Positions 4,129 through 22,374 of a stretch of 29,165 bases of DNA are shown piece after piece. The translations under genes and the position numbers were made by a program. Each line of letters opens with the position of its first letter. The first letter of the stretch is position 1. Source of the DNA: a virus. Lineage: Duplodnaviria > Heunggongvirae > Uroviricota > Caudoviricetes. The stretch spans positions 1 through 29,165 of the IMG/VR virus record IMGVR_UViG_2563366903_000025, one strand, 5' to 3'. Below the pieces are notes generated by a model. The model did no database searches and was not told where the DNA came from. It saw nothing but the letters and a program-made list of their open reading frames with translations.

Positions 4129-4677
4129 TCAGGCTGAAATGCCTTTATCAAATCCGGGTAACGCAATCTGCCCCTGCTGCTCCAGCCTGTCCAGCCTTGC
4201 CAGCAACTGAGGCTTCTTCACCCTGCCCCAGCGATTGAGCAAACGACCTGACATACTGGCAACATCTTTCTCTTTCATGTACTCCAGCATTACAGCGTTG
4301 CGTTCAGCTTCATAACTTTCACTGAACTTACGGAGTTCAGCGGACATCCAGTTAAAGGCATTAATATAGGCTTCTTTAACAGCATCAGCTTTTGCCCCGT
4401 TAAATCCCATAACCAGCATAACGAAGCCGCTAAAGTCCATGCGGTAGTAAATCTGCTTCTTGTCGAAAATCCCTAACTCATTGATTTTTTCGGCAACGCA
4501 AAAATGCGCTCTCCGGAAATCTTCAGAGCAATGGCAATTTTTCAGCGCCCTCAATACGTCCGCATGACGCTTACCAAACGCCTTAGCGATCTGAAAAGAG
4601 TCTGTTATTGGTTCGCCATCTGCCGCTGTTACCAGTTGGCGAAAATCAATACCGTCAACAATCGTCGGATAGTTCAT
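4129..4677 (-). CDS. rha: Rha-family phage regulatory protein
   Basis: 182 aa. N-terminus contains the Rha hallmark (QIAKAFGKRHADVLRAL). Confidence 0.75.
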   Translation of the reverse strand: MNYPTIVDGIDFRQLVTAADGEPITDSFQIAKAFGKRHADVLRALKNCHCSEDFRRAHFCVAEKINELGIFDKKQIYYRMDFSGFVMLVMGFNGAKADAVKEAYINAFNWMSAELRKFSESYEAERNAVMLEYMKEKDVASMSGRLLNRWGRVKKPQLLARLDRLEQQGQIALPGFDKGISA

Positions 4678-4853: not shown

Positions 4854-5321
4854 TTAATTCAGGCACTGAGTGCGGATATAGTCCTGTGCCCCTTCCAGCT
4901 GCTTCTGCATCAGCATCAACCGCTCTCTGAGGGTGAAATAATCCCGTTCAGCGGTGTCTGCCAGTCGGGGGCCGGTTGCATTATCCACGCCGGAGGTGCC
5001 GGTGGCTTCACGCACGGTACCGGAGCAGGTGGCGTTGATCCGCAGGCGCTTACGACCAGCGGCAACATCAGCACGCAGAGTTTCATTTTCAGCTCTCGCA
5101 TCAGCTAATTCCCTCGAGTATTTTGCATCGAGCGCAGCAACATCACGCTGGCGCACCTGCATGTCAGTAATGGTTGCGTTTGCCAGCTCCAGCTCTCTGG
5201 CTTTTTTATCGCGCTGCGCTTTGTAGGTGATGGCGTTATCGCGGTAATGGTTTGCTGCCAGCCACAGCGCACCGCAGCCAACCGCCAGGACAATAATCAC
5301 CACACACAGAACACGGTTCAT
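4854..5321 (-). CDS. Rz: Rz i-spanin
   Basis: 155 aa with N-terminal TM segment and coiled-coil body ([20 protein letters not shown]...[15 protein letters not shown]), closely resembling phage 21/lambda Rz as I recall it. Start overlaps the methyltransferase stop (ATGA). Confidence 0.88.
4916..5086 (-). CDS. Rz1: Rz1 o-spanin lipoprotein (embedded in Rz in the +1 frame)
   Basis: From ATG 5086: [17 protein letters not shown]..., a signal peptide with lipobox (VSAC) followed by a proline-rich body. Embedded position within Rz is diagnostic. Confidence 0.8.
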
Positions 5322-6262
5322 ATCACTACCATTTCACTGTTTTCTTTTTTCAGGCGTTTTTTTGCAACAGCGAAATACCGGTCATCCTTTTCTATTCCGG
5401 TAAACCATCTCCCCGTCCGGATACACGCAACACCTGTTGAACCACTCCCCATAGTAAAATCCAGGACCATATCGCCGGGGTTACTGTACGTCTGAATCAG
5501 CTCTTCCAGTAAGGGCACCGGCTTCTGAGTGGGGTGAAAACGCACTTTTTCCCGTGAGTACTCCAGCACATTTGAACGGTATTTTCTCCCGGCGGGGAGA
5601 TTAAACACCTTTTGACCGTAGGCATGATTAAGCTGACACATCGCTTCATATGTCATGAACCCCGGCATCCGGTCGATGCCAAAGCGTTCGATTAATTCGT
5701 TGTACGTTGCCCGTGAGCAGAGGGAAAACTGCGTGGTGTTAACCCTGAAAAAGTGCTCAGCCCGACAGTGTCCAAGCACCTTGTTAACCTCCTTGCCTGA
5801 CCGGTAACCGGTGAAGGAAAGAATGCTTCTGACGTATTCCCTCAGCGGGTGCTTTTTCTCACTATCATATTTTTTGCTGAACACAACAATGTCCTCGAAC
5901 AGCGATACCGGCGCCTTTGGGGCTACCAGCGGATTGGCAAAATGATTTTTTTTCCACACCATGCGATACGAAAACGGCAGATTGTTCAGCGCCTGAGTAA
6001 TCATCGTGCTGGTGTACGGCTCCTGACCGAACAGAATCAGTGTCCCGTTTACCCTCAGCAGACGCTCACACTGTAAGAATATCTCCACCGGGGGTAATGC
6101 TTCATCCCATGATGCTTTCCCTGAATCCCATGAAGGCAGGTTTAGCCCCTTAATGGTTCCATAGGGTGGATCAACGAGGATAAGGTCAATGCTTCCTTCC
6201 GGTAACGTTGGCATAATCTCCAGACAGTCACCATGATACAGAGAACTGTTCATCTCTTTCAC
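5318..6262 (-). CDS. DNA methyltransferase (beta-class N6-adenine or N4-cytosine; orphan, no restriction partner seen)
   Basis: 314 aa. N-terminal DPPY motif (LILVDPPYG) and C-terminal AdoMet-binding motif ([15 protein letters not shown] with upstream HPTQKP). Motif order IV...I suggests the beta class. No adjacent endonuclease-like ORF. Confidence 0.8.
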
Positions 6263-6395: not shown

Positions 6396-6488
6396 CCCCT
6401 TGATAGCAGTAATTAACTGGGCAACCACCCATAAAAACGGAATCAGCCAGACCAGCAAAAATTTCCAGTCCATTTTTATCATCTTCAT
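6396..6488 (-). CDS. Small hydrophobic peptide (30 aa)
   Basis: My translation from ATG 6488, which overlaps the antirepressor stop (ATGA): MKMIKMDWKFLLVWLIPFLWVVAQLITAIKG. Below the ORF-track length cutoff. Confidence 0.3.
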
Positions 6489-7180
6489 GCTGCGGTAGCT
6501 CTCCATGCAGCAAGCAGACCAGCAATCCACTCAACACCTTTTGGGGTGAATTTAACCTGCGTAAAAGCATGACCATTGCCCGCCTCGCCCGTTTTCACGC
6601 TAAACCGCCCCGCATCCAGGTGATGCGAGTAAGGCGTCATTTTTCCAGCGAGGCGATACATTATTCCGTTCTCCAACAAAAACAGCCGGAAATCGGTTTC
6701 TTTGATACCGAGTAACTTAGCAACTTCCCGGAATCCCATCAGACCAGATGCTTCAACATAGTTATCAACAAATTCGGCCTTCGGCGCTGCTATTGCCAGT
6801 TGATTTTCCAGCACTGCTTTCTGTTCAGCCAGTTTTGCCGCAAATCGCAACGCCTCAGGTAAAGTCCGGGGGATCTGAATACCATGCATCGCTTTGAGTC
6901 TTGCCAGCACAGAACGACGAACGGCCTTTGACTCCCTCATGCCAACGAGCATCATCTGGTCAAAATCCAGATCATAGTATGCCGTTCTTGTCTGGTTATT
7001 GTTTAACCGGAATTTTTTTCCGGTTCCATCAAGCTCTAGCTCATCCTCAATTTTTGCAAGAAACTTACGCGGTTCATGAGGGACTTCTCCGGCTTCTGCC
7101 CGGGCTGGATTAATAATGTTATTCAGAAAATCCAGACTACTCATGGATATTTCATGATCGACAGAAATCATCTCTTTCAT
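6485..7180 (-). CDS. Antirepressor-like protein with KilA-C-type C-terminal domain
   Basis: 231 aa. C-terminal segment LPEALRFAAKLAEQKAVLENQLAIAAPKAEFVDNYVEASG... is paralogous to the C-terminus of the 13088..13816 gene ([40 protein letters not shown]). Confidence 0.65.
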   Translation of the reverse strand: MKEMISVDHEISMSSLDFLNNIINPARAEAGEVPHEPRKFLAKIEDELELDGTGKKFRLNNNQTRTAYYDLDFDQMMLVGMRESKAVRRSVLARLKAMHGIQIPRTLPEALRFAAKLAEQKAVLENQLAIAAPKAEFVDNYVEASGLMGFREVAKLLGIKETDFRLFLLENGIMYRLAGKMTPYSHHLDAGRFSVKTGEAGNGHAFTQVKFTPKGVEWIAGLLAAWRATAA

Positions 7181-7453: not shown

Positions 7454-7987
7454 TTATCTGTCGATTCCCCAGCACGCCAGCGCGCTCTCCTGGTCTCGCC
7501 GGGATACCTGACCGTAACAGTTATTTGAGCGAATACGGCAGTCCCTGCCACCGTCCTTAATCCACCAGCGAATCGCCTCACATGCTCCCCTGCGATCACC
7601 AGCATTAATTCGTTTATAAAACGTCGACGGGAAACACTTACCGGGGCCAATGTTGTACGGACAGAATGACGCGATCCCCGCTTTCTGGGGTTCGGTCAGT
7701 GGCACCCGGATGTTTTTCTCCACCCATGCCAGCGCCTTATCACGCTCAATGGCATTAACCCGGTCGCATTTTTCCTTCGACAGCTTCATGCCAGGAATAA
7801 CAGGCTTACCATCCACCCGGGTGGCTCCACGGCAGATGGTCCAGATACCCGCACCATCACGGTATGCTGTGGTGTGGTTGCCTTCTTTTTCATCCAGAAA
7901 CTGGTCGAGAATGTCAGGCGCAGAAGCGCCAGCGGCAATCAGCGCCAGAACGGCAGCCGATAAACCATAGCGGAGTTTTCTGCTCAC
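7454..7987 (-). CDS. R: SAR endolysin (phage 21 R-like lysozyme)
   Basis: 177 aa with an N-terminal signal-anchor-release-like hydrophobic segment (LSAAVLALIAAGASAP), followed by a lysozyme-like body. Sits immediately downstream of the holin. Confidence 0.85.
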   Translation of the reverse strand: MSRKLRYGLSAAVLALIAAGASAPDILDQFLDEKEGNHTTAYRDGAGIWTICRGATRVDGKPVIPGMKLSKEKCDRVNAIERDKALAWVEKNIRVPLTEPQKAGIASFCPYNIGPGKCFPSTFYKRINAGDRRGACEAIRWWIKDGGRDCRIRSNNCYGQVSRRDQESALACWGIDR

Positions 7988-8932: not shown

Positions 8933-10915
8933 TTATGATGATGCCCGGCTTTCGTTAACTTTGACTGTGACCGTATCAAGCAGTACCGGATACGTCGCTT
9001 TTGCCCCCGTGATATCTGTCAGCGTCAGCGTATCTGCTGTAAAGCCATCATTTGTCCACATCACCAGGTCAAACGCAGACTGCTCTGCATCATCAATCAC
9101 CGGCACCACTTTTTCGCTGTTATTTCCCGCAAAGCGGAAAACAACTGTATGCCAGTTATGGTCAAATGCCCCAAATGTGCCCAGTTGCGCATTCGACTCC
9201 CCCTTGTGGTACATCAGATTCAGATTTGATGCATCCGTCTGAAGGAAGAAGGACGCCAGCATGCTGTTTGCTGTCGCGCCTGACGCCCACTGCGACACCG
9301 GCCAGTACAGACCAAAGACAAACTGACCGTTAACCAGTTCGACACCCTCCGGGATCTTAAACCGCACGGCAATTTCACCTCCCTTACTGAGAAGATTTTT
9401 TGCCTCCTCCACCGCAACAGTACGGAACATCTTCCAGGAGGTCAGTTTACCCGGCTGTTTTTCCAGTCGCAGCGCCTTCCTGCCACTGTCATCCGTCACA
9501 GTGCCTTTACCACCGGACGCATTCCACTGCTGCTCTGTCCATACACCACTGCCACTGTTCGCATCATATCCGGCCACCATTCTTGTTACGGCTTCAGTAT
9601 GACCGCCTGCAGAAGTACCTGCACCCTGCTGTTGCGTCGGACCCGCAGAGCCAGACTGTGCATCCCCCGTGGAGGCTGGCGTGGTCGCCAGCGGTGCAGA
9701 CTGCCCGCTCAGGAACGGCAGCAAACGCCCGGCTCGCACCAGTATCTCTCCTGCCAGCCGATCTGAAACAATGCCTCTTCGCGCCCAGGAGCTGAAGTGC
9801 GTTTTACGATCGGCTGTCGTCCAGTTACCATTACTGCGTGACGCGGCACCATAGTATCCCGCCGTGATAATGTCCGGATCTTCTGACGGCTCGTTTGTCG
9901 GCACATTCGCACCATGCTCATCCGTCATCAACGGCACAAAGTGAATATTCTGCGCCGCCTTGCCTTTATAGCCTCCGTAAACCGCCTCATACTGCACTGC
10001 ATACTTCGCCTTCCAGTCGTACGTGGTGTCACCGCAAATCCACGGGACGCCGGACGTTGTCCCGCCAATACACTGGTCTGCAATATCTGCCAGGTCTGCA
10101 CGGTATTTATTTACCATGGCAAGAAAAAGTGCATTGTGCTCTGCATGTCTCCCCGAACTGACATCTTTTTCCCCCTGCATCCAGATCACCGACAACAGCA
10201 CGTTTTTCGGATTTTTCTTCAGGGCTGCACGCGTTCTGCTGACCAGGTCACGATACAACGGTTTATCCACCCCCCACAGGGAAGAGCCCGCTGTCGCACC
10301 CGACGCCTCATTAAACGCGCCCTCTGCTCCCGCAGTAAATCCCGAATCGCCACGTCCACACGGGACAAGAAGGATCCCCGCACGGGCAGGCATAAACGGC
10401 AGCAGTTTTTTGGCCACATGCAGGGCATGCCCCACACAGCCATACTGCCCTTTATTGAGGTCTGCTTTCGGGTGATTCAGATTACTCACGTCCTGCACAT
10501 CATGCAGACAATGGTCTGCAGGAATAATGTCGTTATATGCACAGGCCGCACCGCCCGGTGTCACCGTGCTGCGACGCGCCAGTTGCTTAATACGCGGGTC
10601 AGGACGATCATACGTATCCGGCAGCGGCAGCCCCTCGCCAAAAGACATCGAGTTGGACTGCCCGGCCAGCGCAATGACAAAGTAATATTCCGGTTCGCTG
10701 GTGGTGCTGATAACAGCGCCACCATCACCCGACGGTTGCACCACCACCGGTGTGGTGACATCACCTTCCGCCGCAATGGCCTGCATCAGGGTATAGGGCG
10801 TGATGGCCACCGGACTGCCAAATGGCTGCCACCCCTCCTTCAGTTTTTGAGTCAGTCGCTCCGCAAGGTCTGACGGCGACGCCGCCCTGACCACGTCATA
10901 GTGTTTAAATGTCAT
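8933..10915 (-). CDS. nanS: Prophage sialate O-acetylesterase (NanS-p-like; SGNH/SASA esterase)
   Basis: 660 aa. N-terminus MTFKHYDVVRAASPSDLAERL (DUF1737-like), a GQSN block (FVIALAGQSNSMSFGEG) typical of SGNH/SASA esterases, and a long C-terminal extension. Positioned downstream of Q, as NanS-p genes are in Stx and lambdoid prophages. Confidence 0.8.
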   Translation of the reverse strand: MTFKHYDVVRAASPSDLAERLTQKLKEGWQPFGSPVAITPYTLMQAIAAEGDVTTPVVVQPSGDGGAVISTTSEPEYYFVIALAGQSNSMSFGEGLPLPDTYDRPDPRIKQLARRSTVTPGGAACAYNDIIPADHCLHDVQDVSNLNHPKADLNKGQYGCVGHALHVAKKLLPFMPARAGILLVPCGRGDSGFTAGAEGAFNEASGATAGSSLWGVDKPLYRDLVSRTRAALKKNPKNVLLSVIWMQGEKDVSSGRHAEHNALFLAMVNKYRADLADIADQCIGGTTSGVPWICGDTTYDWKAKYAVQYEAVYGGYKGKAAQNIHFVPLMTDEHGANVPTNEPSEDPDIITAGYYGAASRSNGNWTTADRKTHFSSWARRGIVSDRLAGEILVRAGRLLPFLSGQSAPLATTPASTGDAQSGSAGPTQQQGAGTSAGGHTEAVTRMVAGYDANSGSGVWTEQQWNASGGKGTVTDDSGRKALRLEKQPGKLTSWKMFRTVAVEEAKNLLSKGGEIAVRFKIPEGVELVNGQFVFGLYWPVSQWASGATANSMLASFFLQTDASNLNLMYHKGESNAQLGTFGAFDHNWHTVVFRFAGNNSEKVVPVIDDAEQSAFDLVMWTNDGFTADTLTLTDITGAKATYPVLLDTVTVKVNESRASS

Positions 10916-11109
10916 GAATCCTCCCGGTCGGGATAATGTTGTGAGTCAGATGAGGGAACGGGCTGAAGTCCGGAAGTTACAGGACAATGGCAGGAGGAAG
11001 ACTACAGCCCGCAATACGAAAAAGGCCGCGCTATTGCGCAGAGTGATTACTGTCGGATATTATTCGCCAGCTGAAATATTACTTCACGTTTTGTTGTTTA
11101 TTCCTTGCC

Positions 11110-11138
11110 GCCCGCGTCTCCCAGCGCGGGCTTTTTTT
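11110..11138 (+). terminator. Plus-strand intrinsic terminator in the Q-nanS intergenic region
   Basis: GCCCGCG-tctcccag-CGCGGGC followed by T7. Confidence 0.5.
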
Positions 11139-11150
11139 GTCCATAAGAAA

Positions 11151-11168
11151 GCCCCTCCGGAGAGGGGC
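11151..11168 (-). terminator. Minus-strand terminator-like hairpin, convergent with the previous terminator
   Basis: GCCCCTC-cgga-GAGGGGC. Minus-strand RNA is followed by UUUCUUAU. Confidence 0.35.
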
Positions 11169-11469
11169 TGGAGAGTGGCGCTATGTGCCATTGCATGGTG
11201 CCGGGTGCCTCCCGGTGAGTTCAGTATCAGCACCTGAACCCGCACAGAAAGGATAAGGGTCGGTGACAAAACACCAGTTGCTGATTGCCCCTCCGCACAG
11301 GGGGATTCACCATGCCAGTTTCTTTTAACAAACTCCCCGCAAACCAGACAACAGTCAACCGCCTGAATTGTGAGGTATTTAAAAATTTCAACGGGTAACT
11401 GATACCCTGCTAATCGCCTGATGCTTTCTTTTTCAGCAACGGGAAAGCAACAACCACCACACCCACCAG

Positions 11470-11496
11470 CCGCCCATTTACCACAAATAAAAAAGC
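11470..11496 (-). terminator. Intrinsic terminator after the 65-aa gene
   Basis: Minus RNA: GCCUUC-cgcagu-GAAGGC followed by UUUUUUAUUU. Confidence 0.5.
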
Positions 11497-11498
11497 CT

Positions 11499-11696
11499 TC
11501 ACTGCGGAAGGCGTCTGTAACAACCGAACTGATAGTCTGCCAGACCCGCCATAACCAGCTGGGTCAGTATTAACTGGCAGCGTTCGCGTGAAAGGTAAGT
11601 ATTCTGCGCAATCTCCCCGACTGTCGCCGGTTCGGTGGCACTTAATTCATTAAACACCACTCTGGCGGTTTCTGTCATATCCTGCTGTTTTAGCAT
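11499..11696 (-). CDS. Hypothetical small protein (65 aa from ATG 11696)
   Basis: MLKQQDMTETARVVFNELSATEPATVGEIAQNTYLSRERCQLILTQLVMAGLADYQFGCYRRLPQ, a possible small winged-helix-like protein. First gene after tR' in the late transcript. Confidence 0.4.
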   Translation of the reverse strand: MLKQQDMTETARVVFNELSATEPATVGEIAQNTYLSRERCQLILTQLVMAGLADYQFGCYRRLPQ

Positions 11697-11816
11697 GTCT
11701 TTTTCCCTTTTCCGGTTAACGTGACACACCAATAACTCTTGTCGAAAAAGCCAGCAAGCTGAAAGACCGGTATTCACCACCACCAGCACGTTTACTGTAC
11801 TGATGCGATTTCAGTC

Positions 11817-11840
11817 ATAAAAAACCCGCCAGGCGGCGGG
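11817..11840 (-). terminator. tR'-like terminator downstream of Q (end of the short pR' leader transcript)
   Basis: CCCGCC-gccu-GGCGGG followed by UUUUUU on the minus strand, about 60 bp downstream of the Q stop, matching lambda pR'/6S/tR' organisation. Confidence 0.55.
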
Positions 11841-11900
11841 TTTAAGTTGTGTGGCGTAGTAACCACTCTTAACATACTGACATACTTTTTGCGGACCGCG

Positions 11901-12293
11901 CTAATCATTTTTTACTTTTTTGGGCAGCCAGTCGTCCATCTCCAGCCTTACACCCAGCATCGACAGACATCCGTCAATAAATCCTTCAGCAATCTGCATC
12001 TCAATTCGTATTGCCTTTTCGCTCTTCTTTCTTGTTCTGGCAATCTGCCTTTTTGATATGCGCAGCAGATAATGAGCTACCAGCAGCGAATACTCGTCCG
12101 GTTTTTTCTTCTTCAGGCGCGTAAGGCAGTTTTCGATGATAAGGCCGTCATCATCGCTGCAGGCCGGGCGAGGTTTAGCGGTGGATGGTAAAAGGCCTTT
12201 AAATCCAGCAGCTATCGGAGAATAGTCCACCCCGGTGTTACCACTTGCCGCCCATGCCCCCCAGCGTTCAAGAACCTGCTGAATATCACGCAT
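11901..12293 (-). CDS. Q: Late antiterminator Q (933W/21-type Q family)
   Basis: From ATG 12293: [35 protein letters not shown]...LKKKKPDEYSLLVAHYL...RLEMD, matching the Q933W-type pattern as recalled. Overlaps the ninH 3' end. Confidence 0.8.
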   Translation of the reverse strand: MRDIQQVLERWGAWAASGNTGVDYSPIAAGFKGLLPSTAKPRPACSDDDGLIIENCLTRLKKKKPDEYSLLVAHYLLRISKRQIARTRKKSEKAIRIEMQIAEGFIDGCLSMLGVRLEMDDWLPKKVKND

Positions 12294-12486
12294 CAGAGTC
12301 TTTACCCTTATCCCATCCACGATGGACCATAAGGACACCGTTGACGACGGCGTGCCGTTTGCCTTCTTTATCGCCAATATATTTTCTGACCGTGTTGCGA
12401 CTACAGTTCAGTATTCTGGCTACCTCGGTCTGATTTTCATATGCCTCAACGAGCATGTCAGGAATGGTTTTTACTGTGAACGTCAT
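12286..12486 (-). CDS. ninH: NinH
   Basis: 66 aa [58 protein letters not shown], near-identical to lambda NinH as recalled. Confidence 0.85.
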
Positions 12487-13088
12487 GCGGCCTCACTTCT
12501 GCTGTTTCGCAGGTCTTTGAGTTTCTGTTGGTACTCTGCCTTGATGGCCCTGCACTCTTCGACAGTCCAGCGATGGCGGTTATGGTTTGATTCGATTTCA
12601 TCTACTGCTTCCTGCCCGATGCGGCTAATCAGTTCGACGCGATACGGAACGAGATTTCCGCTTTTGTGCTGGTTGCACACCACGCATTGCTTGTGAATAT
12701 TGCGTTCATCAAATCGGAGTTGAGGTGCCGCAGCAGTTGTCCGGTAATGTCCGGCATCCCACTGAGCAGACGTGAGCGTTCCGCACGAGATACATGGTAA
12801 GTCGCGGTCTCTTTCTCTGATGAAGGCGTTTACGGCTTGTTGGGCTTGTTTAATCCAGTAACTGCGGGGCTTTAAGGCGAGTTTTCGAATCTTCAGTTTA
12901 TCTTTCTGTTTCTGCTCCTCTCGTCGTCGTTTCTTCTCTGCTGCTTTTTCCGCTTTTTCGCGTTCTTTACTTCGTCGTTCGAGTGCTAATTGAGTTCCGT
13001 GTTCCGGGCAGCACCACCACTGATTTGAGAATGCCGGGTGAAACCATTCCTTGCATATTTTGCATTTCCTTCGCGCTGGTTTAGCCAT
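12483..13088 (-). CDS. ninG: NinG (Rap) recombination protein
   Basis: 201 aa, near-identical to lambda NinG over most of its length ([61 protein letters not shown]...). Confidence 0.9.
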
Positions 13089-13816
13089 TAAGCAGCCTCC
13101 CCTGTTACTTTCAGCATTCCGTTATCGAGCAGCTTTCTGGTCAGCCACTGTTGACCACGCCCGGTGATTTTTGTGGTGAACGATATCTGTATTCCGTGAT
13201 TTGTGTTGACCGCTGTTTCTTTCACTGTGAAATAGCCGCGCTCCATATATTCCTGCATTGGCACATTTCGCCGGGAACCTGAAGTAATAAGGATTTTGTG
13301 ATCGCGCATCCACGCAAACAGTTTGTTTGGACCAATTCCAACAACCTTTGCATAGTTTCCAATCAAAATTCCGCTGGCCTCGCCAACGCGATCGGCAAAC
13401 TCAACTTTAGGTGCTGCGAGAGCAAGCTGTTTCTCCAGTTCAGCCTTCTGGTCTTCAAGGTCGGCCGCAAGGCGCAATGCCTCAGAAAAGGTTTGTGGTA
13501 TTTTCGCGGTTGCCCCTTCGAGTTCTCGCCAACGGTCAACAAGACGAGCGGTGAATTCCGGCGACAACTGAGCGACGACAATAATGCTGTCGCGCTTACC
13601 TTTTTCGCCTTCGAAGACGTAATGCTCGTACTGAACATTGAACCCTAAGTTATTGATTCTTTCGGAAACCTCAATTTGAGGAAGCCGGATAACTCCACTT
13701 TTAACCAGCGTTTCGATGGTTCGTTTCACATTGTCATGACGCTTACCTGTAAGCTCAGCGATTTCAATGCTAGTCATTTTGATGACGTTGCTATTTATCA
13801 GCTCGTTCATTGTCAT
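13088..13816 (-). CDS. Rha N-terminal / KilA-C C-terminal antirepressor-like protein (Roi-like)
   Basis: 242 aa. N-terminal Rha hallmark ([19 protein letters not shown]) and C-terminal KilA-C-like domain. Located between ninG and the nin accessory gene. Confidence 0.7.
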
Positions 13817-19306: not shown

Positions 19307-20014
19307 ATGGTTCAGAATGAAAAAGTGCGCAAAGAATTCGCCCAGCGGCTAGCGCAAGCCTGTAAAGAAGCTGGTCTTGATGAACATGGTAGGGGAATGG
19401 CTATAGCCCGTGCCCTTTCTCTTTCGTCCAAAGGCGTTAGCAAATGGTTTAATGCTGAGTCTTTACCGCGTCAGGAAAAAATGAATGCGCTTGCGAAATT
19501 TCTAAACGTTGATGTTGTTTGGCTTCAGCACGGCACTTCGTTAAATGGAGCGAATGATGAAGATACTCTTTCATTTGTTGGCAAATTAAAAAAAGGGTTA
19601 GTGCGCGTGGTTGGTGAGGCAATTCTTGGTGTTGATGGTGCCATCGAGATGACCGAAGAGCGCGATGGGTGGCTCAAAATTTATAGCGATGATCCAGATG
19701 CCTTTGGTCTTCGTGTGAAAGGAGACAGCATGTGGCCCAGAATAAAATCAGGAGAATATGTACTCATTGAGCCTAACACCAAAGTATTTCCGGGGGATGA
19801 GGTGTTTGTCAGAACTGTTGAAGGACACAACATGATCAAAGTTCTTGGCTATGACAGAGACGGAGAATACCAATTTACAAGCATCAACCAGGACCACAGG
19901 CCAATAACGTTGCCTTATCATCAAGTAGCAAAGGTGGAGTATGTGGCTGGTATTCTGAAGCAATCTCGCCATCTGGATGACATCGAGGCAAGGGAGTGGC
20001 TGAAAAGTTCGTGA
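19307..20014 (+). CDS. cI: CI-type prophage repressor (HTH plus LexA/S24-like autocleavage domain)
   Basis: 235 aa. N-terminal HTH region, then a C-terminal domain with S24-like features (GDSMWPRIKSGEYVLIEP...). Divergent from cro across the operator region. The ATG sits directly after the operator, suggesting a leaderless pRM-type transcript as in lambda. Confidence 0.88.
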   Translation: MVQNEKVRKEFAQRLAQACKEAGLDEHGRGMAIARALSLSSKGVSKWFNAESLPRQEKMNALAKFLNVDVVWLQHGTSLNGANDEDTLSFVGKLKKGLVRVVGEAILGVDGAIEMTEERDGWLKIYSDDPDAFGLRVKGDSMWPRIKSGEYVLIEPNTKVFPGDEVFVRTVEGHNMIKVLGYDRDGEYQFTSINQDHRPITLPYHQVAKVEYVAGILKQSRHLDDIEAREWLKSS

Positions 20015-20096
20015 CTTCATCGTCACATAGCTGGTAACCAGTGGCCTGAAGAGACGTTTGGGTGATGTACATAGCATTTCTGGATAAAAATACAGA

Positions 20097-20138
20097 TTCC
20101 CTTTATGGGAAATGAATCTATAATTCCCAAAGAGGGAA
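20097..20138 (+). promoter_or_regulatory. Promoter with twin operator palindromes upstream of the toxin gene
   Basis: Perfect -10 TATAAT at 20119-20124, flanked by two TTCCC-N5-GGGAA dyads (20097-20111 and 20124-20138). The -35 is weak. Confidence 0.5.
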
Positions 20139-20150
20139 CAAAATCGGATT

Positions 20151-20438
20151 ATGAAGGTCTTAAACGTAGAGAGGCTTCACAGTTTTAGCCGGAAGCACAA
20201 TCAGGCCAAGGGGGCTTTAGACTCTTGGTATGATGAAGTGATAAGAGAAAACTGGAAAACGACTCAAGACATACGGAATAGATTTAATTCTGCCGACTTC
20301 CTTCCTAACAACAGGGTAATTTTTAATATAAAAGGCAATAACTATCGGCTCGTTGTCCAAGTTGTTTACCAGGCAGGAATGGTCATAGTTGAAAGAGTTG
20401 GAACTCATGCAGAGTACGACAAGTGGAGGCTTAAATGA
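20151..20438 (+). CDS. higB: HigB-family toxin (RelE/ParE superfamily)
   Basis: 95 aa. C-terminal ...GNNYRLVVQVVYQAGMVIVERVGTHAEYDKW parallels E. coli HigB ...NELRVVAMVFFESQKCYIREVMTHKEYD as recalled. Toxin-first order typical of hig loci. Stop overlaps the next start (ATGA). Confidence 0.75.
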   Translation: MKVLNVERLHSFSRKHNQAKGALDSWYDEVIRENWKTTQDIRNRFNSADFLPNNRVIFNIKGNNYRLVVQVVYQAGMVIVERVGTHAEYDKWRLK

Positions 20439-21091
20439 ATCGAACTAGCTGGCGCATCATTAAAAATAGTGAAGAGCATGCTGCAGCTATGGAAAGGCTC
20501 ATTGAACTTGCGTCTAGTGATTTACAACCTGGAACTGAAGATTTTGATGAGTTTGAACTACTAGGCTTGCTTATCGAGCACTATGAGTCACGCGAGTTCC
20601 CTATGGACAAGCCAGATCCCATAGAAGCAATCAAGTTCCGTATGGATCAACAAGGCCTCTCTTATGCCGATATGAAACAATACATTGGCTCAGCATCTAA
20701 AGTATCTGAGGTCTTAAATCGTAAGCGTCCATTAAGTCTTTCAATGATCCGTAGACTACATGACGGACTTGGAATTCCTGCAGATATCTTAATTCAAGAT
20801 ATGAGCGCAATTGAATGGAGCCTAGTTGACGCAGAGGAAGAAGAAACAGCCATGACTAGCGTCATTGCTCGGTGTGAGTCAGCCGTCACATCACCTTCTG
20901 CTTATTTCGCTGAAAAGGCTACAGAATCTTACTTTTCAAAAATGTTGTTCAGCGCAGTAAGGGGTAATGGCAAATGCAAAGAAAAACGGAATGTTTTTTC
21001 TTTGATAAGTAACTTGTCATCAAGTTTCACAGCGGCTAGCAACCTGAATGACGAAATGACTTCTGACGGAAATTACTTATTATTACCATGA
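20435..21091 (+). CDS. higA: HigA-family HTH antitoxin with about 95-aa C-terminal extension
   Basis: 218 aa. Residues up to about 125 match the HigA pattern (PDPIEAIKFRMDQQGLSYADMKQYIGSASKVSEVLNRKRPLSLSMIRRLHDGLGIPADILI). Canonical HigA ends there; this protein continues with an acidic, Ser-rich tail. Confidence 0.75.
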   Translation: MNRTSWRIIKNSEEHAAAMERLIELASSDLQPGTEDFDEFELLGLLIEHYESREFPMDKPDPIEAIKFRMDQQGLSYADMKQYIGSASKVSEVLNRKRPLSLSMIRRLHDGLGIPADILIQDMSAIEWSLVDAEEEETAMTSVIARCESAVTSPSAYFAEKATESYFSKMLFSAVRGNGKCKEKRNVFSLISNLSSSFTAASNLNDEMTSDGNYLLLP

Positions 21092-21492
21092 AAATTGAAC
21101 TCATTAGCAAAAAAGTTGAACGCTTGGTTATGACACGGCTAGAAGGCGATTCAACAGCAAAAAAAGCCATAAAAACAACCGTTAATCTAAATAATGAACT
21201 TTACACTAATGTGAAGGATTCAAAGCTATTTAGAGTGAGATATTTTGCCTCCGTAACTATTGAAGGCAGGCTTGAGATGGACATCACATACGACTTTGAC
21301 TTCCGGTCAGAAGATGATTTTTCTCATGAAATGGCAAAATCATATGAGGTAAGGTCCATTGCTCCCAATATGGCATATCCCTATATAAAAACATATGCCG
21401 AGCAAATTATCCTCATGTCAAACCTTGGTAGGTTCACTCTGCCTTATTTTGATTTCTTGGCCAATCCCATGGAAACGAACAGTAATAAGTGA
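21088..21492 (+). CDS. SecB-like chaperone candidate (third gene of the cassette)
   Basis: 134 aa, translationally coupled (ATGA). Segments FRVRYFASVTIEG and APNMAYPYIKTYAEQIILMSNLGRF resemble E. coli SecB ([34 protein letters not shown]) as recalled from memory. Confidence 0.55.
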   Translation: MKIELISKKVERLVMTRLEGDSTAKKAIKTTVNLNNELYTNVKDSKLFRVRYFASVTIEGRLEMDITYDFDFRSEDDFSHEMAKSYEVRSIAPNMAYPYIKTYAEQIILMSNLGRFTLPYFDFLANPMETNSNK

Positions 21493-21500
21493 AATTCCCC

Positions 21501-21528
21501 ACCCGGCCTCAGCGCCGGGTTTTCTTTG
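21501..21528 (+). terminator. Intrinsic terminator closing the cI-proximal operon (t-imm position)
   Basis: ACCCGGC-ctcagc-GCCGGGT followed by TTTTCTTT, 9 nt after the last stop codon. Confidence 0.6.
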
Positions 21529-21810
21529 CCTCACGATCCCCCACCTAAAAAAACATAACCATTTGTATTTATAGATGTAACTCGCTAAACCATGCAGTTC
21601 TGATCCCTGCCGCATAACCTTCATCAGCCACATTTTCAAAAATAAATTTCCTTATATATCAGAATCATACTTCGTAGAGTTAATAAATCACCAAAATTCG
21701 TACCAATAGTTCTTGATAATGTCGAACTATTGGTTCATCATTATCGTCATCAGCAGGACGCATTACTCACCAGGGCGGTGAATATACAACGATTCGAATA
21801 TGAATCTACG

Positions 21811-21990: not shown

Positions 21991-22374
21991 ATGACACGCA
22001 GAACTCAGTTCAAAGGCAATTCACGTTCTCGTCGTCGTGAGCGTTTAAAGGCAAAGGCATTAGCTAACTGCGTACTGGCCCGCGAAGAAGCAATAAGTTC
22101 AGAAGTATTACACCGCCCTACTCTAAGCAGAGCGCAGATTCAGGCTAAAGGTACTCACGAAACGCCTGAGCGCATAGAAGACGCTAAGCCAATTAAGTTC
22201 ATTGCACAGGACGTGATCTGGCAACAGAAAGAATACAGACGCAATCTGGAGCGAGCAGCCATTGTGTACGCGAATGAGTTTGGACATAAGCAACCAGAAA
22301 CTGGTGTATGTCTTCCAAACGTAGCCATTTACGCGGCAGGCTACCGGAAATCAAAACAACTGACGGCAAGATGA
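21991..22374 (+). CDS. N: Antiterminator N (P22 gp24-like)
   Basis: 127 aa with N-terminal arginine-rich motif (GNSRSRRRERLKAKALA) and C-terminus LPNVAIYAAGYRKSKQLTAR matching P22 N as recalled. AGGAGG RBS. Confidence 0.8.
   Translation: MTRRTQFKGNSRSRRRERLKAKALANCVLAREEAISSEVLHRPTLSRAQIQAKGTHETPERIEDAKPIKFIAQDVIWQQKEYRRNLERAAIVYANEFGHKQPETGVCLPNVAIYAAGYRKSKQLTAR

Follow-up and report, generated by a model that had tools for sequence, protein, structure and literature searches.

[quoted passage not shown] It is bound through aromatic or hydrophobic residues, in chaperone pockets equivalent to those of the HigC protein discussed below (PMC5105189; PMC6377645; PDB 5mtw). Two anti-phage systems share some of these components with the locus that is the subject of this article. 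The first, CmdTAC (PD-T4-9; Vassallo et al., 2022, PMC9519451), resembles it in having an antitoxin with a ChAD and a SecB-like chaperone, CmdC, and in being an abortive defense system borne by prophages or mobile elements (PMC9519451). Its toxin, however, is an mRNA ADP-ribosyltransferase rather than HigB, its antitoxin is unrelated to HigA, its ChAD has an Ala-Ala ClpXP degron, and the defense is against T-even phages. The second, PD-lambda-2 (Vassallo et al., 2022), has a HigB-like toxin and, in its antitoxin, a HigA-like HTH core that are close relatives of ours, and it defends against lambda. Here the HigA-like protein has a folded C-terminal peptidase domain where our antitoxin has a tail predicted to be unstructured, and the third gene encodes a P4-antitoxin-like protein, not a SecB-like chaperone.

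The closest described system is HigBAC of Escherichia coli NT1F31, which is encoded by a lambdoid prophage and follows cI, where lambda has its rexAB slot (Mets et al., bioRxiv 10.1101/2024.02.24.581848). HigBA of this strain is toxic in E. coli K-12 (the secB+ strain BW25113) unless HigC is co-expressed. The published ChAD is residues 122-218 of HigA (96 aa); HigA without these residues neutralizes HigB in the absence of HigC, whereas the full-length protein needs HigC. The ChAD has four aromatic anchors (W128, F158, F188, and Y214), and the pocket of HigC is made of Y39, N41, R49, and D71. In isothermal titration calorimetry (ITC), the KD of HigC for a HigA peptide spanning residues 121-148 is 1.3 uM, and the W128A change abolishes the binding. 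Rescue by HigC is abolished when W128, F158, and Y214 are substituted together, and HigC R49A does not rescue. When all four anchors are substituted, HigA is stable without HigC. [quoted passage not shown] This tail protein of lambda and the ChAD compete for HigC, and HigB is thereby released (all from Mets et al., bioRxiv 10.1101/2024.02.24.581848).

Here we analyze a relative of this system in a stretch of 29,165 nt of phage DNA (IMG/VR record IMGVR_UViG_2563366903_000025), called the window in what follows. We are highly confident that positions 20801-21091 of the window encode the ChAD element of an antitoxin, HigA, whose TAC system (HigB-HigA-HigC) is carried by a prophage and fills the slot between cI and a terminator. 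The operon consists of three co-oriented and tightly linked genes on the plus strand, in the order toxin, antitoxin, chaperone. The first, higB (20151-20438), encodes a RelE-type ribosome-dependent mRNA interferase toxin of 95 aa. The second, a HigA-like open reading frame (higA, 20435-21091), encodes 218 aa, and the third, higC (21088-21492; gene 3 of the first-pass annotation of this DNA), a putative SecB-like TAC chaperone of 134 aa. As read from the sequence, both junctions, higB/higA and higA/higC, are ATGA overlaps. A single intrinsic terminator 3′ of higC closes the three genes (21501-21530, plus strand; a stem of seven pairs, six of them G-C, followed by TTTCTTT). HigB belongs to a recognized type II toxin family: it matches Pfam HigB_toxin at 4.6e-30 (104 bits, where the cut-off is 27), the PADLOC profile PD-Lambda-2_A at 5e-42, and HigB of PDB entries 5ycl and 5ifg at E 1e-4.

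Upstream of the higB start, an inverted-repeat search found two TTCCC-N5-GGGAA palindromes, at 20097-20111 and 20124-20138, which bracket a TATAAT at 20119-20124. These elements are candidates for the operators of HigA and for the operon's own promoter, separate from the cI promoter. A simple sigma-70 scan reported no promoter upstream of higB, and the -35 region that goes with the TATAAT is weak, which is why we do not go beyond calling them candidates.

The window operon is an allele of NT1F31 HigBAC. The three genes, their order, the 218-aa length of HigA, and the position downstream of cI are all equal in the two, and the eight published key residues of HigA and HigC are all present in the window proteins at equal numbers (8 of 8), among them the pocket residues Y39, N41, R49, and D71 of HigC. 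At the DNA level, the comparison covered what the supplement of Mets et al. contains, namely the opening ~400 nt of the cloned fragment, higB in full, and the primers. The fragment and the window differ by nine mismatches in 399 nt (~98% identical), two of them in the 288 nt of higB and seven in the leader; the palindrome block, 20058-20139, is identical. The two changes in higB alter two residues of the toxin, R8K and I31R. Of the 22 NT1F31 oligonucleotide sequences that were mapped on the window, 20 are identical to it and the other two differ at one position each, mutagenic primers being scored by their wild-type flanks. The primers for mutagenesis of HigA and HigC are all exact except oKE89, where the one mismatch gives R185 here against Q185 in NT1F31. 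The known differences are thus R8K and I31R in HigB, at least R185Q in HigA, and the seven leader changes, to which should be added the host prophage, a mosaic with an Stx-phage-like backbone, unlike the NT1F31 case. The window proteins (WP_001082382, WP_000687675, and WP_000866443) are absent from the supplement of Mets et al. under these accessions. The 96-residue tail is nevertheless the already published chaperone-addiction element of E. coli HigBAC, and the finding as such is not new. The study that described the element later appeared in Cell Host & Microbe, in 2024.

In HigA, about 122 residues form a folded helical core, and the 96 that follow make up the tail. The core (residues 1-122, positions 20435-20800) is the helical HigB-binding antitoxin domain, with an HTH for DNA binding; the tail comprises residues 123-218 and the stop codon (20801-21091). 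In the AlphaFold2 model, made with an alignment of 31 sequences, residues 11-120 have pLDDT values of 88-96 and form seven helices, the last of which ends at about residue 120. The columns that are invariant in the same alignment are all inside residues 46-119. The match to Pfam HTH_3 (residues 67-118) scores 20.9 bits, which is under the Pfam cut-off of 23, and the match to HigA of PDB entries 5ifg and 5ycl has an E of 5e-5. The latter two (138 aa) are the nearest solved HigA; they align to residues 53-119 of the query and end 3-5 residues beyond. Past the core the prediction changes: residues 130-218 have pLDDT below 50 and no secondary structure, and the extension is accordingly modeled as unstructured by itself.

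The first-pass annotation had placed a C-terminal extension at 20810-21091, and the tail is real. It is in frame from codon 126 to the stop, the solved HigA end at the core, the homologues have a bimodal length distribution, and pLDDT drops. Its start, on the other hand, was drawn three codons late, since the peptide quoted there begins at M123 (nt 20801), and the true boundary is at about D122. The description of the tail as acidic, Ser/Ala-rich, and of low complexity holds to varying degrees. Ser (16.7%) and Ala (11.5%) are indeed abundant, followed by Glu (10.4%), and S, A, T, N, and E together make up 51% of the tail against 30% of the core. The net charge is -5 and there is an EEEE run, but acidity does not distinguish the tail, as the core is at least as acidic (-7). 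Low complexity is true in a weak sense only. Mean entropy in windows of 12 residues is about the same in the tail (2.88) and in the core (2.92), and no such window of the tail is at or below 2.2 bits; there is a mild dip at residues 186-205 (2.28-2.45 bits).

HigA cores do occur fused to real C-terminal domains. The match of our core to the PADLOC profile PD-Lambda-2_B (3.8e-50) covers just positions 1-125 out of 402. One could therefore consider that the tail folds into a domain of its own, perhaps an enzymatic one, or that it adds a module for dimerization or DNA binding, by comparison with the HigA-peptidase fusions (PD-lambda-2B). We find this extremely improbable. No Pfam, NCBIfam, or PADLOC profile matches residues 128-218, and the low pLDDT and the lack of predicted secondary structure in the 31-sequence model are at odds with a folded domain. 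The tail is, moreover, the least conserved and fastest-diverging part of the protein, with 11-46% identity where the core keeps 66-96%. A separate, conserved enzymatic domain, which the first-pass annotation had set against its own proposal, is thus not what the tail looks like, and we return to the tail as a chaperone-addiction element.

The HigA homologues provide another view of the tail. The core has homologues among chaperone-independent antitoxins; HigA homologues number in the thousands, and many are 119-157 aa long. The best 120 homologues fall into two classes by length. Members of the short class are 119-164 aa long and have almost no tail (2-31 aa), and those of the long class are 181-245 aa long with tails of 61-125 aa. 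The long form goes together with the third gene. Scans for relatives of HigC yielded one locus in species-representative genomes and 29 in viral contigs, and at all loci with a HigC relative (33 of 33) higB and a long higA are directly upstream, mostly with the same 4-nt overlap. For each of two divergent long-tailed HigA proteins (P0067 and P0077), the next gene encodes a homologue of HigC (at 43% identity, with an hhalign probability of 99.9%), and both loci adjoin a prophage repressor on its downstream side. At the one locus of a short HigA homologue that was examined (P0123), higB is upstream and the third gene is absent. When 20 distinct HigA/HigC pairs are compared with the window proteins, identity is 66-100% in the HigA core and 40-100% in HigC; in the more distant pairs, tail identity is 11-46%. 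The length of the tail is kept at 88-104 aa (72 in one type) across the Klebsiella, Salmonella, Citrobacter, and Serratia relatives.

These comparisons also bear on the possibility that the extension is an artefact of the annotation or the sequence: a read-through, a frameshift fusion, or an accident of overlapping reading frames. Truncated or frameshifted tails do exist, in the homologues L016 (189 aa), P0048 (144 aa), and P0041, and speak for such an accident. But the 218-aa product recurs: its sequence cluster has 96 members and 88 complete genomes encode it, and both the length of the tail and its anchors are kept in the Klebsiella, Salmonella, Citrobacter, and Serratia relatives in spite of heavy divergence. 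In most loci, in addition, the stop codon of higA overlaps the start codon of higC. We give an artefact next to no credence, and take the extension as a genuine part of HigA that serves chaperone addiction.

What the tail conserves is a series of aromatic residues. W128 (codon at 20816-20818, plus strand, as are the others) is W in 20 of the 20 distinct HigA sequences, F158 (20906-20908) and F188 (20996-20998) are F or Y in 19 each, and Y214 (21074-21076) is Y or F in 18. In other words, these four positions are aromatic in 18-20 of the 20 sequences despite the divergence around them. The NT1F31 primers for W128, F158, and Y214 (oKE85, oKE87, and oKE91) match the window exactly; the primer for F188 is oKE89, which has the single mismatch noted above. 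W128 sits in an [IV]-E-W motif with which nearly all long tails open before they diverge. F188 is in the most hydrophobic patch of the tail, which is also the one of lowest entropy, the stretch 186-205 being the only one of reduced entropy; an aggregation-prone patch around F188 has been published for NT1F31 HigA (Mets et al., bioRxiv 10.1101/2024.02.24.581848). Compared with the M. tuberculosis ChAD, the window tail (96 aa) is more than twice as long, and has its four anchors about 30 residues apart.

The partner of the tail would be HigC. Its AlphaFold2 model (alignment of 20 sequences) has a pLDDT of 86.9 and a pTM of 0.80, and consists of four strands followed by a long helix. With this model as the query, the best match of Foldseek in the PDB is 5mtw, M. 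tuberculosis Rv1957 with a peptide of the HigA1 ChAD (E 5e-7, TM 0.73-0.75), and the next matches are SecB of E. coli and of Haemophilus influenzae; for 5mtw, 1qyn, and 1fx3 taken together, E is 5e-7 to 3e-6 and TM 0.70-0.77. HigC also matches the PADLOC profile of CmdC, PD-T4-9_C, at 3.2e-11. At the level of sequence, there is no match to Pfam SecB or to NCBIfam at E values up to 0.1, and a profile of the 20 sequences against all PDB chains gave just a chance match to a thioredoxin (E 1.1). Identity to Rv1957 is 16-17%. Because these sequence searches were empty, the SecB assignment rests on the predicted fold and the CmdC profile, and it is from these that we identify gene 3 as the chaperone of a TAC system with, by its model, the SecB fold. 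The HigC family is small (28 proteins, all from Enterobacterales). Three of the pocket residues, N41, R49, and D71, are invariant in it and Y39 is nearly so.

We also considered whether HigC could be the housekeeping SecB of protein export, and rejected it. HigC has no match to the SecB family in Pfam or NCBIfam at E values up to 0.1, and in structural alignment its identity to E. coli SecB is 12-14%. The gene context of the export chaperone, yibN-grxC-secB-gpsA, is absent as well; HigC sits in the immunity region of a prophage.

The SecB fold of the gene 3 model, the predicted disorder of the tail, and the co-occurrence of long tail and chaperone at 33 of 33 loci bear out the proposal of the first-pass annotation that the tail is a chaperone-addiction region, a proposal for which the deletion of residues 122-218 had been published with the NT1F31 allele. 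The comparison of truncated and full-length HigA that was suggested there as a check is that same experiment, in which the truncated protein was chaperone-independent and the full-length protein was not. From the NT1F31 data, the window system may be thought to work as follows. Its unstructured tail would make HigA unstable when alone. A tetramer of the SecB-like HigC would grip the tail by the four spaced anchors, W128, F158, F188, and Y214, and so stabilize HigA, whose helical core would then neutralize the HigB mRNA interferase. A siphovirus protein that HigC binds (lambda gpV for the NT1F31 allele) would divert the chaperone, and HigA would be lost. The freed HigB would shut down translation and thereby block the production of phage. 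The present analysis itself contributes the anatomy of the operon, a HigC model with the SecB fold, a tail that is predicted to be disordered and that occurs together with the chaperone, the conservation of the anchors, and the near-identity to NT1F31. Chaperone dependence, binding, triggering by gpV, and defense are carried over by analogy from the near-identical allele of the published work; we infer that the few substitutions leave the behavior of the window allele unchanged.

How free HigA is lost matters for the choice between this scheme and a simpler one, in which the tail is just a degron, a tag for a protease that renders HigA labile, much as antitoxins are in ordinary type II systems, and in which it acts independently of gene 3, an unrelated passenger. 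The tail is unstructured by prediction, as a degron might be. Free NT1F31 HigA is undetectable by immunoblot and a ChAD-tagged reporter forms no aggregates (Mets et al., bioRxiv 10.1101/2024.02.24.581848), from which it follows that proteolysis is involved. HigBA remains toxic in mutants of clpP, clpX, lon, and hslVU, and the data of the authors favor loss of HigA by a protease other than ClpXP, Lon, or HslVU over visible aggregation (Mets et al., bioRxiv 10.1101/2024.02.24.581848). The end of the window tail, Leu-Pro, is not a motif of the ClpX type either. This is a difference from the M. tuberculosis ChAD, which ends in a ClpXP-type Val-Ala degron, whereas the loss of HigA is independent of ClpXP in the NT1F31 data. 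The third gene speaks against a plain degron: higC is translationally coupled to higA, its product is modeled with a SecB fold, it always accompanies a long-tailed HigA, and in NT1F31 it both stabilizes HigA and makes direct contact with the tail (Mets et al., bioRxiv 10.1101/2024.02.24.581848). We therefore consider a plain degron with a passenger gene very improbable and retain the chaperone-addiction element.

The same experiments narrow two mechanistic statements of the first-pass annotation. It had allowed for either aggregation or degradation of the free antitoxin; the loss of HigA on immunoblots of NT1F31 agrees with the statement, but the aggregates were not seen with the reporter. It had also supposed that titration of the partner chaperone or of host SecB, by stress or phage infection, releases the toxin. 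For the partner chaperone, HigC, this is borne out in NT1F31, where the titrating agent is phage gpV. Host SecB has to be dropped from the statement: it is no substitute for HigC, because HigBA is toxic without HigC in BW25113, which is secB+.

The setting of the operon is that of a prophage immunity region. A cI-type prophage repressor gene (19307-20014, plus strand; Pfam Peptidase_S24 at 4.4e-16 and HTH_3) adjoins higBAC upstream, and is called a LexA-family regulator in the annotation of strain 86-24. N is downstream of higBAC at 21991-22374. The gene order is thus cI, higBAC, a terminator common to rexB-bearing prophages, and N. The evidence for the terminator being common is that about 770 other E. 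coli records match just the last ~50 nt of the query (~1400-1451, window ~21500-21550); in two records among the matches listed, this stretch overlaps the end of a gene annotated as 'protein rexB'. From this shared flank, HigBAC and rexAB appear to be alternative cassettes that are exchanged between common flanks. RexAB of phage lambda resembles HigBAC in its slot, between cI and the shared terminator and upstream of PL/N, and in being an exclusion cassette expressed from the prophage. There is no homology between the two, and the mechanisms differ. The setting also separates our locus from the M. tuberculosis TAC system, which is chromosomal and linked to stress, whereas window HigBAC is a prophage defense cassette.

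The late region of the prophage, on the minus strand, is like that of Stx phages, with Q at 11901-12377, an esterase gene of the nanS-p-like SASA type at 8933-10915, and a lysozyme gene at 7454-7987. The gap of ~985 nt between Q and the esterase (10916-11900) has no open reading frame of stxAB size and no tRNA genes, so that the usual stx site appears to be empty. Also on the minus strand are three separate antirepressor-like genes of the Rha and/or ANT (KilAC) type, at 13088-13816, 6485-7180, and 4129-4677. A DNA methylase is encoded at 5318-6262. When positions 1-25000 of the window were compared with phage and E. coli records, no record covered more than 66-67%, and the matches were split into 12-15 pieces of ~94% identity. 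Taken as a whole, the prophage is a mosaic absent from the collections searched, even though its HigBAC cassette is common.

Of 5426 complete E. coli genomes, 88 have the cassette, at 99.8-99.9% identity among the matches listed, and so do at least 30 phage records. The phage records, many of them of Stx-converting phages, include many Stx1a phages as well as BP-4795 and ST2-8624 (of strain 86-24). Among the genomes that carry it are those of two reference EHEC strains, 86-24 and O26:H11 11368. In RefSeq, the three proteins are labeled 'HigB family toxin', 'helix-turn-helix domain-containing protein', and 'hypothetical protein'. The value of the present analysis is mainly one of annotation, in that genes so labeled are those of a characterized anti-phage TAC system. 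Window HigBAC opens no new mechanistic question.

The carriage of the allele by Stx phages invites the thought that, in this stx-negative prophage and in Stx1a and Stx2a phages (O157, O26), it has a trigger range or a role that goes beyond the NT1F31 study, either in exclusion among Stx and lambdoid phages or through an interaction with the tail-tube protein of the resident prophage itself during induction. This seems to us unlikely. If it were true, exclusion of competing lambdoid and Stx phages by HigBAC would shape which Stx phages spread. Stx phages are not mentioned by Mets et al. (bioRxiv 10.1101/2024.02.24.581848), and tying the system to superinfection exclusion between these and lambdoid phages would for that reason be a modest extension of their work. 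The tail genes lie outside the window. The Stx1a prophage of E. coli O26:H11 11368 (L037, 8301-9017) has an identical HigBAC cassette and a tail module of the siphovirus type. Its major tail subunit (WP_001275459.1) matches lambda gpV over 25 residues (E 0.002), and does not align over residues 48-78 of gpV, the trigger loop. Such a pattern fits a resident phage that avoids triggering its own system, but it proves nothing.

Finally, the homologues include some natural variants of the tail. Among the truncated and frameshifted alleles mentioned earlier, L016 (2349-2918) stops right after F188, P0048 is left with 22 tail residues, and in P0041 the tail is frameshifted. By analogy with the published deletion, alleles of this type might be partly or fully independent of the chaperone, and blind to the trigger. 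In four other loci (L025, L026, L028, and L029), HigC is in each case ~74% identical to window HigC, and yet the tails are of two types: that of L028 is 75% identical to the window tail, against 44-46% for those of L025, L026, and L029. Such a pattern suggests that tail and chaperone have recombined, which would be tolerated because the aromatic anchors are kept.
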